From assembly GCA_049300095.1 (NCBI GenBank), contig JBAQYM010000202.1, forward strand, positions 5,890 through 69,889: a stretch of 64,000 nt of DNA. Direction: 5' to 3'. The notes below the pieces were generated by a model, which saw only the letters and a list, made by a program, of their open reading frames with translations, did no database searches and was not told the DNA's origin. The DNA comes from Syntrophobacteraceae bacterium (GTDB taxonomy: Bacteria; Desulfobacterota; Syntrophobacteria; Syntrophobacterales; Syntrophobacteraceae). Each line of letters opens with the position of its first letter. The first letter of the stretch is position 1. Made by a program: the position numbers and the translations under genes. Shown piece after piece: positions 3,915 through 51,889 of the stretch.

Positions 3915-4535
3915 TTATACGATAGAACCCGATCTTTGACGGTAGTTTCTCAAAAGCCCCATCACCACCCCCACAACCTCCACCTCATCGGCAGCTACCC
4001 GGATAGGCTTCATGCTCTCATTTGCGGGGCGGAGTTCTATCTCTTTTCCGTGGTGATAGAACTTCTTGACCGTTGACTCCCCATTCACAAGGGCCACCAC
4101 GGTTTGCCCGCTTTCCGCATGAGGCTGCCTGGTAATGACCAGGATGTCCCCATTCCGGATGCCCTCGTCAATCATGGAGTCCCCCTTGACTCGCAGGGCG
4201 AAATTGCCTCCATGTCCAAGGAAATCTTCCGGCACTTCAATGGATTCAGGCACCTCGACGGCCTCGATAGGGGTCCCCGCCGCCACAACTCCGAGAAATG
4301 GAATGACTCCGCTTCCGGTTTGGAGAGGGACCAGCTCCAGGGCGCGTTTCTTGTTTTTCCAGGGAATCCTGAGATAGCCTCTTTCCTCTATCTGCTTGAG
4401 ATGCTTGAAGACGGCGTTCAAGGATTGGAACCCGAGATTGCTTCGGATCTCCTCGTAGGATGGGGCGTAGCCATGCTGATCGATATAGCCTCGCACAAAC
4501 CGGTATACCCGTTCCTGGGCCGGGGTGAGCCCCAT
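3915..4535 (-). CDS. lexA: LexA repressor (S24 autopeptidase)
   Basis: MGLTPAQERVYRFVRGYIDQHGYAPSYEEIRSNLGF (winged HTH). Cleavage/catalytic region VKGDSM ... TVKKF. Start set at 4535 (GGGAGGA 6 nt upstream) rather than the ORF-track 4565. Confidence 0.9.
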   Translation of the reverse strand: MGLTPAQERVYRFVRGYIDQHGYAPSYEEIRSNLGFQSLNAVFKHLKQIEERGYLRIPWKNKKRALELVPLQTGSGVIPFLGVVAAGTPIEAVEVPESIEVPEDFLGHGGNFALRVKGDSMIDEGIRNGDILVITRQPHAESGQTVVALVNGESTVKKFYHHGKEIELRPANESMKPIRVAADEVEVVGVVMGLLRNYRQRSGSIV

Positions 4536-4558
4536 AGAATGTCCTCCCGACGTATGGG

Positions 4559-5227
4559 TCAGCATGAATACCCGAACCGCACCGCCTTCTCCCGCAAGGA
4601 CCCCAGGAAATGCAGGTCGGCGGGCGAGGCCCTGTGTCCTTTTTCCTCGATGAACCTGATCAGGCCGAGGATTTTTGAAATCCTCGGAGACACGACATCA
4701 TAGCCGTTTTCCCTGGATTTTCCACTTCTATCGCCGGATTGCACGAACCGACCCTGGAATCTGAGAAACTCCTCGCCGGACTCAAAGACCTCTCCGTGCC
4801 AGAAGTCTTTGTAGACTTTTGTCGAGCCTTCATCAATGCGCCGCGCCGTCTCCACTATATTGATGCAAGCCTGTTCCCTGACCGTTCGGAAGAGATATCC
4901 CCAAGTCTCCCTCTCGCCGAGATAACCGAAAGGAGCGGGGAGTTCATGATCAAAGCAGTACGACCGTTTGAAAAACGGCCACTTGAAGATCGGAGAGCCC
5001 GGCCGCGGAAGGCCATTACGCCCGACCTGGACGACAAACTCGGGAAGCTCGCCATGTTCCCCCCACTCCTTGTGGGCGGATTTGACAGAGCGGTCCACCA
5101 TCTCTTGCGAATCCTGCCAAAGGGCGTGCTCGACGGCAAGCTGGAGCAAGTGGATGGTTTCCCGTATCCCATTTTGGGCAAGCACCACAACAGCCCTTTT
5201 TTTCAATGTATAAAGGTCAACGCTCAT
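4559..5227 (-). CDS. Hypothetical protein, first gene of the lexA operon
   Basis: 222-aa ORF ending 23 nt before the lexA start, same strand, with a good promoter upstream. I recognise no family motif. Confidence 0.55.
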   Translation of the reverse strand: MSVDLYTLKKRAVVVLAQNGIRETIHLLQLAVEHALWQDSQEMVDRSVKSAHKEWGEHGELPEFVVQVGRNGLPRPGSPIFKWPFFKRSYCFDHELPAPFGYLGERETWGYLFRTVREQACINIVETARRIDEGSTKVYKDFWHGEVFESGEEFLRFQGRFVQSGDRSGKSRENGYDVVSPRISKILGLIRFIEEKGHRASPADLHFLGSLREKAVRFGYSC

Positions 5228-5488: not shown

Positions 5489-5517
5489 TTGACATTTCCG
5501 CTCGGAGCTAATAAGAA
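5489..5517 (+). promoter_or_regulatory. Sigma-70-type promoter feeding the cobalamin riboswitch
   Basis: TTGACA (5489-5494), 17-nt spacer, TAAGAA (5512-5517). Confidence 0.45.
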
Positions 5518-5534
5518 TTCCTGGACCTTTTTAA

Positions 5535-5705
5535 ATACACGGAGTTCAGTAACGGAACACGGTGCAAGTCCGTGACGGTCCCGCCGCTGTGACCGGGGAC
5601 GCAGATCAGAGTTATGAGCCACTGTACGGGGCGTAGTCCGTACCGGTATGGGAAGGCTATGATCTGGCGGATGATCCGGAAGTCAGAAGACGACTGAGCG
5701 TCCCA
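5535..5705 (+). promoter_or_regulatory. Cobalamin (B12) riboswitch aptamer
   Basis: Conserved core AACGGAACACGGTGCAAGTCCGTGACGGTCCCGCCGCTGTGA, then GCCACTG, GGGAAGGC and a B12-box-like GAAGTCAGAAGACGACTG. The order and spacing match the cobalamin riboswitch class (Rfam RF00174). Confidence 0.85.
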
Positions 5706-5724
5706 TGTCAAGGAATCTGATGGC

Positions 5725-5776
5725 AAAGGGTTCCGGTAGCCGTGTCGCGGCTGTCGGAACCCTTTTTCCGTTTTTC
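5725..5776 (+). terminator. Intrinsic terminator (riboswitch expression platform)
   Basis: Stem AAAGGGTTCCG ... CGGAACCCTTT with an inner AGCCG/CGGCT pair, followed by TTCCGTTTTT. Lies 20 nt before the downstream ATG. Confidence 0.7.
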
Positions 5777-5795
5777 AGGGGGGTGGATCAGACCC

Positions 5796-6767
5796 ATGGA
5801 AATGTCGGCTATCCTGGTCAAAGATATCGGCGCTTTTGAACTGACGACGGTCCCGGTGCGAGACCTTGAAGATGATGAGGTGCTGATTGAAGTCGAGGTG
5901 ACCGGTCTGTGCCGAACGGACCTTAAACTAATACGTGTGGGACACCGCGATCTTACGCTGCCGAGGATACCGGGCGAAGAGGTTGTCGGCGTTATCCGAA
6001 GGAAGGGCGGCAATGTGTCCGCGTTGCACGAGGGCTCCAGGGTTTATGTGTACCCGGGCCTGTGGTGCGGCCGTTGCGTGGCTTGTCGGACAGGAGCGGA
6101 AAACCTGTGCCGGGGAATGCAAATCATGGGGTTTCACCGGGATGGCGGGTTTGCGGAGTATGTCATCGCGCCCGCAAAGAGCGTTATTCCAGTGCCGGAT
6201 GGTCTCAGTGCTGAACGGGCCGTATTTGCCGAGCCACTTTCCTGCTGCCTCAACGCCCTTGAACTGGCTCGCCTCGGCAAAGGGGAAACCGTGGGCATCT
6301 GGGGCGCCGGTCCCGCTGGGACCCTGCTTGCGAGAGCATCCCGGACGATGGGGGCCGAACCTTTTGCCATCGAGCCGGATCGGCGGCGCGGAGAGATCGC
6401 TCAAGGAATCGCCTGCCGCGGGAGCGAGAAATTTGATGTTTGCATCGTTGCGGTCGGATCGGGACAGGCCTACCGGGAAGCGTTCGGGGCGATGAACCCG
6501 CGCGGGCGCCTTGTGATCTTCTCGGGGCTGCATGCGTCGGAAGATGAAATGCCCCTTAGCCTAAACCAGTTGCACTACCACGAGCAAACCATAGTGGGTG
6601 CTTACGGATGCAGCTTCAGGCATGGCGTTCAGGCACTGCGCCTGATCTCCACGGGAGCGGTCGCCGTTGAAGACATGATCTCGCACCGAATGGCTCTGGG
6701 CGATCTGGAACAAGCACTGCAAATCGTTGAAGACCGTAAGGGCATGAAGGTCCTACTCTACCCTTGA
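5796..6767 (+). CDS. Zinc-type medium-chain dehydrogenase/reductase (threonine/sorbitol dehydrogenase-like)
   Basis: GLCRTDLKL, structural-zinc motif CGRCVACRTGAENLC, Rossmann GIWGAGPAGTL. The usual GHE is PGEE here. Start moved to the ATG at 5796, downstream of the terminator. Confidence 0.85.
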   Translation: MEMSAILVKDIGAFELTTVPVRDLEDDEVLIEVEVTGLCRTDLKLIRVGHRDLTLPRIPGEEVVGVIRRKGGNVSALHEGSRVYVYPGLWCGRCVACRTGAENLCRGMQIMGFHRDGGFAEYVIAPAKSVIPVPDGLSAERAVFAEPLSCCLNALELARLGKGETVGIWGAGPAGTLLARASRTMGAEPFAIEPDRRRGEIAQGIACRGSEKFDVCIVAVGSGQAYREAFGAMNPRGRLVIFSGLHASEDEMPLSLNQLHYHEQTIVGAYGCSFRHGVQALRLISTGAVAVEDMISHRMALGDLEQALQIVEDRKGMKVLLYP

Positions 6768-6813
6768 GTGGTACGATCTCGGGGGAGCACGGGCAACACG
6801 GGAGAAATGGAAG

Positions 6814-7959
6814 ATGGCATGGTCGGAAGGATCGTTGAGAGAATTCGGTGCGAATATCCAGAGGCTTATCCGCAAGGAGGACCTTAACCGCGCGGAAAGC
6901 TACGAGATGTTTCGGCAGATTTTGCTGAATGAGCAGCCGGATTTACAGCAGGGCGCATTCCTTTCCGCCCTGGTGTCGAAGGGTGAGACGCACCTGGAGA
7001 TTGCCGGCGCGTGGCAGGCCATCGTCGAGCACGACACAGCCCTTATTGGCGATGAATTCGACCGCCCCCTGGTCGAAAATTCCGGGACCGGCATGGATCA
7101 GCTCAAGACATTCAACGTGAGCACGGCCGCATCGGTGGTTGCCGCGGCCGGGGGCGCTCGTCTTGCCCGGCATGGCGCGCGGGCCCTCACATCTTCTTGT
7201 GGCACGGTGGATCTGCTCGAGAGAATTGGCATCGACGTCGAGTGCGAACTGGAAATAGTCGTTGCGAGCATAAAGAAAGAGGGAATCGGCTTGTTTAACG
7301 GCACAAGCTCTAAAGTCCATCCGCAATCGCTCGGGCGGATTCTCAGTCAGATCCGGTTCGGGTCCACTCTCAATATCGCCGCGTCGCTGGCAAGCCCGTG
7401 TCGTCCCACGCATGCGCTGCGGGGCGTGTATTCGGCGGAGTTGGTCCCGAGGGTGAGCGAGGTGATGAAAGAGATCGGCTACGAGCGGGCGATGATCGTG
7501 CACGGGTTTGATGCAACGAAAAAGAAGGGAATGGACGAGATCTCGACCATAGGAGAGACTTTGGTCTGTGAGTTCCTCCCCGGTGGAGAGGAGCAAACAT
7601 TTCTGCTGGCCCCGGAAGATGTCGGCCTCAAGCGGGCTGACTACTCAGACATAGCGGCAACCGGAGACGTCCGAAAAGAGGTCGTTCGATTCATGAAGGT
7701 GATCAGTGGGACCGGGCACCCTCAATGCATTGACATGACGTGTCTCAACGCGGGCGCGATCCTCTATCTGGTGGGCAAAGCCGAAGATATACGGATGGGC
7801 GTTGAAATGAGCCGTGAGATCATAGAAACAGGCAAGGCCCTGGCCAAACTCACCCGCTGGATTTCAGTTCAGGCCGACCCGTCGGGAAAGGGCCCGGTAA
7901 AGTACCTGAATGCGGCCGCCGAGGCGGGCATAAGGGCGGAAGTGGCCGCGCTGTTGTAG
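6814..7959 (+). CDS. Glycosyltransferase family 3 / TrpD-like phosphoribosyltransferase paralog
   Basis: NSGTGMDQLKTFNVSTAASVVAAAGGARLARHGARALTSSCGTVDLLE aligns by eye to the TrpD block GTGGD..TFNISTA..A.HGNR..SS..GSADVLE. The PRPP loop is GTGMD rather than GTGGD. Confidence 0.8.
   Translation: MAWSEGSLREFGANIQRLIRKEDLNRAESYEMFRQILLNEQPDLQQGAFLSALVSKGETHLEIAGAWQAIVEHDTALIGDEFDRPLVENSGTGMDQLKTFNVSTAASVVAAAGGARLARHGARALTSSCGTVDLLERIGIDVECELEIVVASIKKEGIGLFNGTSSKVHPQSLGRILSQIRFGSTLNIAASLASPCRPTHALRGVYSAELVPRVSEVMKEIGYERAMIVHGFDATKKKGMDEISTIGETLVCEFLPGGEEQTFLLAPEDVGLKRADYSDIAATGDVRKEVVRFMKVISGTGHPQCIDMTCLNAGAILYLVGKAEDIRMGVEMSREIIETGKALAKLTRWISVQADPSGKGPVKYLNAAAEAGIRAEVAALL

Positions 7960-51814: not shown

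Positions 51815-51889
<75 letters not shown>

Follow-up and report, generated by a model that had tools for sequence, protein, structure and literature searches.

A dehydrogenase and a TrpD-like protein behind a cobalamin riboswitch: a conserved pair most likely serving an undescribed step of cobamide synthesis

Why does a cobalamin riboswitch control a zinc-type alcohol dehydrogenase and a protein that resembles anthranilate phosphoribosyltransferase? The question arises from a 64,000-nucleotide stretch of contig JBAQYM010000202.1 of a Syntrophobacteraceae bacterium (hereafter the window, meaning the whole stretch analysed), in which such a riboswitch precedes a gene for a medium-chain dehydrogenase/reductase (MDR) and a gene for a protein of the TrpD fold. 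Because the same two genes are usually found behind a B12 riboswitch or beside cobT, in at least 500 species-level genomes, we conclude that the pair most likely carries out an undescribed step of cobamide synthesis. Which form of B12 a microbe can use depends on cobamide structure. In most anaerobes two steps are genetically unexplained, namely the supply of the lower-ligand base without bza or bluB and that of threonine phosphate or aminopropanol without pduX or bluE. The pair is a concrete candidate for one of these two steps, and several cultured carriers exist.

The riboswitch operon and its conservation

An Rfam scan covering all 64 kb of the window returned only two matches, a tRNA and a cobalamin riboswitch (RF00174) on the + strand at 5554-5691, which scored 77.4 bits against a gathering score of 31.5 (E = 2.4e-17) and bears out the aptamer claimed in a preliminary description of this DNA. 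The alignment in the window spans model positions 47-167 only, while orthologous leaders align over 1-189; a covariance model built in this analysis from eight Rfam-confirmed aptamers (R1) matched at 5552-5696 with 166.7 bits. The terminator-type platform of the same description was likewise recovered: 30 nt downstream of the aptamer stands a 19-bp hairpin (5725-5765) with 10 G-C pairs and TTCCGTTTTT directly 3' of it, and the minimum-free-energy fold of the leader contains this hairpin, with a stability above that of shuffled sequence (z = -3.1). A predicted expression platform able to couple ligand binding to gene expression is present in the leader. The mechanical start of the first open reading frame (ORF), GTG 5742, falls within the terminator; because the orthologues align from ATG 5796, we took the latter as the real start, which gives a dehydrogenase of 323 residues with the N-terminus MEMSAILVKD. 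The operon comprises the following features:

5489-5518, + strand: predicted sigma-70-like promoter (TTGACA, 18 nt, AAGAAT; 10/12 matches in a consensus scan)
5552-5696, + strand: cobalamin riboswitch aptamer (RF00174 at 5554-5691, R1 at 5552-5696)
5725-5775, + strand: intrinsic terminator, the predicted expression platform (19-bp stem at 5725-5765, then a T-rich tail; terminator scan)
5796-6767, + strand: zinc-type MDR dehydrogenase, polyol/threonine-dehydrogenase-like, 323 aa (PF08240 and PF00107; start from the orthologue alignment)
6814-7959, + strand: TrpD-fold (type III phosphoribosyltransferase) protein of a non-canonical clade, 381 aa (PF02885 and PF00591)

Two pattern scans of GTDB contigs, with one genome per species, yielded at least 554 and at least 513 confirmed relatives, of which the best 160 loci, 153 of them with a unique TrpD-like sequence, formed the analysed set. 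The two genes stay together: with adjacency defined strictly as a distance of no more than 400 nt, at least 142 of the 153 unique loci have a dehydrogenase orthologue next to the TrpD-like gene, and most of the others are contig ends, slightly larger gaps or frameshifts. When the scan was run the other way, with the dehydrogenase as starting point, 76 of 78 new loci had the TrpD-like gene as the next gene downstream, the two exceptions being one contig end and one metagenome-assembled genome (MAG) with the genes on different contigs. In most bacteria the dehydrogenase gene comes first; the order is reversed in ANME-1, Syntrophoarchaeum and Aquificota. Overlaps of 1-4 nt between the two genes are frequent, a geometry of co-transcription, and the pair proteins of Firmicutes, Aquificota and archaea are 58-72% identical, which is unusually high. 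Two MAGs show rarer arrangements (loci are numbered with the prefix L): a Methanotrichaceae MAG has two copies of the pair on two contigs, only one of them beside cobT (L139 and L143), and in a Syntrophobacteraceae MAG the TrpD-like gene and the dehydrogenase are separated on two contigs (L003 and L167).

Over a dozen phyla of anaerobes, bacterial as well as archaeal, have members with the pair, sulfate reducers and syntrophs being among the bacterial ones. The carriers include Thermodesulfobacteriota (Syntrophobacter, Desulfobacteraceae, Desulfarculia, Smithella, Syntrophorhabdaceae, Desulfobulbales, Geobacter, Trichlorobacter and Pelobacter), many Bacillota (Desulfosporosinus, Desulfofarcimen acetoxidans, Dehalobacterium formicoaceticum, Candidatus Formimonas warabiya, Pelotomaculum, Fuchsiella, Natroniella and Tissierella creatinini) and a wide range of other bacteria (Nitrospirota, Thermoleophilia, Kiritimatiellia, Lentisphaerae, Verrucomicrobiia, Myxococcota, Spirochaetes, Calditrichales, Aquificota and Dehalococcoidales), as well as Methanothrix and other Methanotrichaceae, ANME-1, Syntrophoarchaeum, Methanolliviera and Methanomassiliicoccales among the archaea. 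A location on the cobamide plasmid of Geobacter lovleyi or on another plasmid was considered and rejected, a tblastn search of PLSDB at 1e-40 having given no match.

The riboswitch linkage seen in the window recurs in these relatives. R1 located an aptamer upstream of the pair and on the same strand in 83 of the 99 bacterial loci with at least 450 nt of upstream DNA, at a distance of 80-495 nt (median 118) from the first gene, and 75 of the 83 have a comparable stable hairpin before a T-run. Rfam agreed with R1 on every subset checked and gave no match in the R1-negative loci. In many of the 16 bacterial loci that lack a riboswitch, the pair is part of a larger operon of cob, btu or hem genes, and a riboswitch was found in none of the 41 archaeal loci. 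In its aptamer family, its terminator-type OFF platform and the cobamide-related context of its downstream genes, the operon resembles the cob, cbi and btu operons controlled by RF00174, but neither gene of the pair is listed among the cobamide genes of a RegPrecise-type comparative-genomics survey of such regulons (PMC3766115).

Further riboswitches occur on the other side of the pair. A second cobalamin riboswitch lies directly downstream of it, ~100-250 nt on, in L048, L051, L056, L060, L063, L073, L074 and L228, and also in L207, L210 and L217 (at ~6930-7130); in Thermoleophilia it controls cobU-cobT-cobS-cobC and in Geobacter a TonB-dependent receptor. In two related loci a c-di-GMP-I-GGC riboswitch (RF03167, 61-66 bits) follows the pair at a distance of a few kb (L005:9204-9278, + strand; L009:8476-8568, - strand), and Rfam found no equivalent in the window.

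Cobamide genes around the pair

Neighbouring ORFs were clustered, and the recurrent families were identified by Pfam and NCBIfam or by reading. The commonest immediate neighbour of the pair is CobT, which is directly adjacent in 28 loci and present somewhere in the locus in 43 of 153. The archaeal type (TIGR00303) stands directly upstream in 17 loci, in the order cobT-dehydrogenase-TrpD-like that is typical of Methanotrichaceae, and the bacterial type (PF02277) is adjacent in 11, from ANME-1, Syntrophoarchaeum, Methanolliviera, Dehalococcoidales and L037. CbiB or CobD lies within 400 nt in 2-3 loci.

The surrounding operons differ between lineages. Thermoleophilia have the order riboswitch-pair-riboswitch-cobU-cobT-cobS-cobC-cbiB and Dehalococcoidales that of btuFC...cbiB-cobD-riboswitch-pair-cobT-cobS-cobC-(Dph6-like)-cobU; with the dehydrogenase gene first, the pair is preceded by cobD-cbiB and followed by cobT in L185, and preceded by a cobD/cobQ fusion and cbiB in L079. 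Geobacter and Trichlorobacter share a unit of riboswitch, dehydrogenase, TrpD-like gene and cbiZ, with overlapping genes, followed by riboswitch-btuB, and in Trichlorobacter thiogenes (L223) the corrin-ring genes cbiG and cbiJ and tetrapyrrole methylases stand directly upstream of the pair. The Aquificota order is (cbiZ)-btuF-TrpD-like-dehydrogenase-radical SAM-btuF-btuC-btuD-cobU, and in Verrucomicrobiota and Kiritimatiellia the pair sits between a hemC/cobA/hemD fusion with hemB and hemL (fusion-hemB-dehydrogenase-TrpD-like-hemL). Every informative context of the pair is one of cobamide synthesis, salvage or transport, mostly of its nucleotide-loop part, and by conserved co-regulation and co-location with cob genes the pair would belong to the nucleotide-loop pathway.

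According to the literature cited for them, the studied Dehalococcoidales are unable to make the corrin ring, and the position of the pair within their salvage operons is therefore evidence against a role in corrin-ring synthesis. A precorrin-2 dehydrogenase or 5-aminolevulinate-pathway role, suggested by the hem operons of L068, L076 and L080, was rejected because these corrin-ring-less salvagers and the btu operons of Aquificota carry the pair.

Two published organisms provide circumstantial support for a supply of the lower-ligand base by the pair, the reading proposed below. In an Antarctic Chlorobium population the same two genes make up a 3-kb accessory contig, among low-coverage regions that also carry cobalamin synthesis genes, in a genome with cobT, cobS and, separately, an ordinary trpD, from which bzaABCDE is absent (PMC8620254). 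Desulfitobacterium hafniense, the known producer of purinyl cobamide, which takes its purine lower base from the yeast extract of the medium (PMC6389850), is not among the 120 closest relatives of a Desulfitobacteriaceae member. An idea in which the dehydrogenase reduces a purine nucleotide and the TrpD-like protein frees the purine for purinyl cobamides was dropped because of these two facts about D. hafniense.

A full-text literature search found no functional assignment for the pair, the unannotated Chlorobium contig being its sole mention, and the published riboswitch operons of Dehalobacter restrictus do not include it. The module, its breadth and its CobT link appear to be new; the riboswitch and both protein superfamilies are of known kinds. 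Hundreds of cobamide enzymes probably go under the names "anthranilate phosphoribosyltransferase" and "L-iditol 2-dehydrogenase", a systematic mis-annotation of a sort that distorts genome-based predictions of tryptophan prototrophy and cobamide production.

Three further protein families accompany the pair in particular lineages. In ANME-1, Methanosarcinales and Methanolliviera, a protein of ~357 aa is encoded divergently from the (cobT)-pair unit (L102, L103, L108, L112, L114, L120, L121, L144, L150 and L156; for example L144:5983-7053, - strand); it combines an N-terminal domain of the ribbon-helix-helix type with a weak AIR-synthase-related (PurM-like) one and could act as the local regulator that responds to cobamide in archaea, where B12 riboswitches are lacking. 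A Dph6-like PP-loop ATP pyrophosphatase (PF01902) lies inside or beside nucleotide-loop operons, for instance between cobC and cobU in Dehalococcoidales (L113:10691-11374; also L041, L071, L101 and L102, the last on the same contig as L059); it falls under the cut-off for true diphthine-ammonia ligase and is a second unassigned protein in cobamide operons. In Aquificota (L075:2671-3387, L082:4043-4762) a 239-aa activase-type radical-SAM protein follows the pair inside the btu/cobU operon and could be a lineage-specific third component.

The two proteins of the pair

The TrpD-like protein scores above the cut-off of the TrpD model TIGR01245 (239.4 bits against 199.05), and pipelines therefore name it TrpD. 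It shares with TrpD the fold and the domain order, of the motifs for phosphoribosyl pyrophosphate (PRPP) and Mg it keeps NxST and DE, with GTGGD retained only in the form GTGxD, and its best PDB relatives are anthranilate phosphoribosyltransferases (E = 4e-46). An exhaustive HMMER search nevertheless returned distinct representatives at 38-57% identity before the bulk of canonical TrpDs at 31-36%, and in a neighbour-joining tree the canonical TrpDs, ~32% identical to it, split from the non-canonical group in 100 of 100 bootstraps, so that the divergence noted in the preliminary description corresponds to a separate clade. The same description had reported GTGMD in place of GTGGD, and the motif reads so in the sequence. 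Unlike TrpD, the protein has an MDR dehydrogenase as its partner, and neither the recurrent neighbour families of the pair loci nor the scanned ORFs of the window include trp genes.

The acceptor site of the protein is remodelled. Besides GTGMD, the protein has the motifs RHGAR, FNGxSxxVHP and RFGSTLNIAASLASP, and it keeps the PRPP/Mg motifs NxST and GMDE; the anthranilate-site sequences in the window are RHGAR, RFGSTLN, FNGTSSKVHP and AASLASP. KHGNR, present in most canonical representatives, is replaced by [KR]HG[AS]R in 148 of the 153 relatives, FAPxxHP by FNGxSxxVHP and LGPLxNP by (A/G)ASLA(S/N)P, and the arginine of GxRTxFN is shifted by two residues, giving RFGSxLN and, with the segment that follows, RFGSxLNIAASLA. 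NVST and GMDE are conserved, as is GTGMD in 153 of 153, a figure biased by search patterns that selected GTGMD. The asparagine of KHGNR, the arginine of GxRTxFN, FAPxxHP and LGPLxNP are elements that we take, from published TrpD structures, to line the anthranilate tunnel. Since the PRPP/Mg elements are kept and those of the tunnel replaced, the protein would be a transferase that uses PRPP and an acceptor different from anthranilate. The alternative identity as TrpD2/YbiB proved untenable (NF006005, 26.7 bits against a cut-off of 185; PRK09071, 36.9 against 257), and the models for NP-II nucleoside/nucleotide phosphorylases were also missed, the best reaching 39-40 bits against 409-535 over the N-terminal part only.

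A sister clade of TrpD-like proteins (P0127-like; L239-L271, for example L262:2827-8338), 41-45% identical, comes from soil and sediment metagenomes. As in the pair protein, the asparagine of KHGNR is lost and the arginine is shifted, and a partner enzyme modifies an N-ribosylamine, as the MDR partner would; unlike the pair protein, the clade keeps GTGGD and has no riboswitch, MDR dehydrogenase or cob neighbours. Its conserved cluster of TrpC-like, TrpF-like, RibD_C-like reductase and TrpD-like proteins with a 740-aa molybdopterin oxidoreductase looks like an undescribed tryptophan-pathway-like route. The RibD_C-like, TrpF-like and TrpC-like partners are enzymes that act on the sugar chain of N-ribosylamines, which by analogy only would agree with an MDR enzyme acting on a phosphoribosyl adduct.

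The dehydrogenase is of the zinc-type MDR superfamily, with a GroES-like domain (PF08240, 98.5 bits), a Rossmann domain (PF00107, 39.6 bits), the GxGxxG dinucleotide motif (as GAGPAG) and all four structural-zinc cysteines (C91, C94, C97 and C105, within CGRCVACRTGAENLC). As had been described, it is threonine/sorbitol-dehydrogenase-like with an intact structural zinc site and GEE, here within PGEE, in place of the catalytic GHE. Of the predicted catalytic zinc ligand positions, Cys39, Glu62 and Glu146 are present, and the histidine is changed to glutamate in the window and in 65 of 76 relatives; GHE is kept in 9 of the 76 dehydrogenases of the first set and in the archaeal and Firmicutes orthologues of the second scan. 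To judge from these alignments, GEE is a lineage variant and no hallmark of the family.

The domain architecture, the structural zinc site, GxGxxG and the best overall similarity link the enzyme to the branch of L-threonine 3-dehydrogenase (TDH) and sorbitol dehydrogenase. It differs from that branch in its shortened nucleotide-binding domain (323 aa in all), in the histidine-to-glutamate change of the window lineage, in a signature of its own (CxTDxK..G[HQ][RK]DLxxPR[IV]xG[HE]E..EPLxCCxN) and in lying far under the cut-off of every NCBIfam equivalog. The best models are those for TDH, scyllo-inosose dehydrogenase, idonate dehydrogenase and galactitol-1-phosphate dehydrogenase, with TDH missed at 142 bits against 380 (NF003808) and 141 against 458 (TIGR00692). 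The closest solved structure, 4ej6, has no assigned function, and TDHs come next; public databases name the proteins "L-iditol 2-dehydrogenase" or "alcohol dehydrogenase catalytic domain-containing protein" only. Extra basic residues conserved near the active site (R40, K44, H50, R51 and R57) could bind an anionic, for example phosphorylated, substrate.

A candidate function and its alternatives

We propose, with a probability of roughly 0.4, that the two enzymes together carry out an O2-independent step whose product goes to CobT and is probably the lower-ligand base. Ample cobamide would occupy the aptamer, and transcription would end at the 5725-5765 terminator; under scarcity both enzymes would be produced together and act in the late, nucleotide-loop part of cobamide synthesis or salvage, with CobT rather than in its place. 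The TrpD-like enzyme would use PRPP to N-phosphoribosylate an amine or heterocycle other than anthranilate, its polyol-dehydrogenase-type partner would oxidise or reduce the phosphoribosyl adduct or a precursor, and the product would be, or become, the lower-ligand base that CobT then activates. PRPP would serve as carbon or handle donor and the dehydrogenase would perform the redox step; what we infer here is that PRPP is used, in which order the two reactions run and what their product is. Such an O2-free route would occupy the genomic position beside cobT that is held elsewhere by bza or bluB. Like bzaABCDE/bzaF and bluB, the pair stands beside cobT and behind B12 riboswitches, and like bza it occurs in anaerobes, but it has no sequence relation to them, and its chemistry would be PRPP transfer and NAD(P) redox rather than radical SAM chemistry or flavin destruction.

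A more specific form, which we consider doubtful, is an O2- and radical-SAM-independent route to a benzimidazole-type lower ligand (benzimidazole or 5-methylbenzimidazole), in which PRPP would give C2 via an N-phosphoribosyl-arylamine and the dehydrogenase would aromatise the product. We know of no biosynthesis genes for the 5-methylbenzimidazole lower base; 5-methylbenzimidazolyl cobamide has reportedly been obtained from Methanothrix, Desulfobulbus and Desulfobacterium, which match lineages that carry the pair, a correspondence that we offer as a lead only.

Several points weigh against the supply of a lower ligand. The linkage with CbiZ, CbiB and CobD fits a role in the linker (aminopropanol phosphate) about equally well. 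Given the 58-72% identity across phyla, one universal substrate can be argued, and lower ligands differ between taxa. We know of no obvious common metabolite that two enzymes would turn into benzimidazole. The hemC-cobA-hemD, hemB and hemL context of Verrucomicrobiota and Kiritimatiellia points only to B12 generally, and a review lists the cobamide of Geobacter lovleyi as cobalamin (PMC11321594).

Displacement at C1 of alpha-PRPP by a type III phosphoribosyltransferase gives a beta-riboside, not the alpha-ribotide needed for cobamides. For this reason, and because CobT co-occurs with the pair, the suggestion that the TrpD-like protein is an alternative to CobT fails, although the wider proposal to which it belonged, a cobamide-related route, is strongly supported by the riboswitch linkage and the cob neighbours. 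CobT and ArsAB, which use nicotinate mononucleotide (NaMN), would share with the TrpD-like protein only the role of phosphoribosyltransferases in nucleotide-loop assembly; the fold is unrelated and the donor would be PRPP instead of NaMN, which makes the pair a partner of CobT. That proposal also suggested that a TDH-like enzyme could feed in aminopropanol, and this survives as a minority reading. The arm that CbiB joins to cobyric acid, be it aminopropanol, aminopropanol phosphate or threonine phosphate, would then come from the pair, which would replace the threonine kinase (PduX/BluE) that most genomes lack, with threonine converted to aminoacetone and aminopropanol. The best family and the best characterised PDB matches of the dehydrogenase are indeed TDHs, cbiB and cobD (threonine-phosphate decarboxylase) lie near the pair in L079, L185, L109, L113, L126, L041 and L071, and the product of CbiZ, encoded in one operon with the pair in Geobacter and Trichlorobacter, needs re-linking by CbiB. 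Yet the obligatory TrpD-like partner is left without a role, the TDH models are missed by a wide margin, CobT adjacency far exceeds that of CbiB or CobD (28 loci against 2-3), and the archaeal units consist of cobT and the pair only, all of which leads us to rate a linker role as rather improbable. The tight CobT adjacency, which involves two unrelated-looking types of the enzyme, would equally suit a supply of its donor, the TrpD-like protein being a phosphoribosyltransferase for nicotinate (or a related pyridine) that regenerates NaMN from the nicotinate released by CobT. A base-independent substrate would account for the high conservation across phyla, and nicotinate, like anthranilate, is an aromatic carboxylate with a nucleophilic nitrogen that conserved Arg and His near the acceptor site might accommodate; but here it is the dehydrogenase that has no role, and NaMN is in any case an intermediate of de novo NAD synthesis, of which the cobamide flux needs little, and we think this unlikely.

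We give a similarly small chance to a helper in salvage or remodelling that processes a fragment of dismantled imported corrinoids, such as the riboside or aminopropanol released by CbiZ, or that makes the alpha-ribotide by PRPP-dependent ribosylation followed by redox-assisted anomerisation. The cbiZ operon followed by riboswitch-btuB in Geobacter and Trichlorobacter, the btuFCD and cobU neighbours in Aquificota and Dehalococcoidales, and the nucleoside/nucleotide phosphorylases within the TrpD fold (weak matches) speak for it. Most carriers, however, have the pair as a stand-alone riboswitch operon, in T. thiogenes it lies directly downstream of corrin-ring genes, the phosphorylase models give ~39 bits against cut-offs above 400, and an activity redundant with that of an adjacent CobT is unlikely. 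A B12-independent replacement of a B12-dependent reaction, in the manner of metE or nrdDG behind B12 riboswitches, was the other proposal of the preliminary description and is compatible with the OFF logic of the riboswitch alone; the location of the pair beside cob, btu and hem genes in dozens of loci, and beside cobT in the riboswitch-less archaea, speaks against it, no known B12-dependent reaction matches a phosphoribosyltransferase plus a dehydrogenase, and we regard it as very improbable. Still less credence goes to ordinary amino-acid metabolism, that is, a real anthranilate phosphoribosyltransferase and a threonine/sorbitol dehydrogenase that stand behind a riboswitch by chance: the TIGR01245 score and the public annotations as TrpD and L-iditol dehydrogenase would fit, but the anthranilate-site motifs are lost, the clade is separate, the recurrent neighbour families and the scanned ORFs of the window show no trp genes, a canonical trpD coexists with the pair in Chlorobium, and the riboswitch linkage is kept across phyla. 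The remaining probability lies with cobamide-related functions of other kinds.

In the window the pair forms a stand-alone riboswitch operon whose neighbours have no B12 relation. The features around it are:

3915-4565, - strand: lexA, divergent from the riboswitch promoter and overlapping the end of the upstream 222-aa ORF
4559-5227, - strand: 222-aa ORF with no Pfam match, divergent from the riboswitch promoter
5370-5341, - strand: strong promoter-like site (11/12)
51816-51889, - strand: tRNA-Arg (anticodon TCT), the only tRNA in the window

Downstream of the pair follow genes for a rhomboid protease, an isochorismatase-family hydrolase and a glutathionylspermidine-synthase-like protein, and the genomes closest to the window locus are Syntrophobacter MAGs, at 89% identity.

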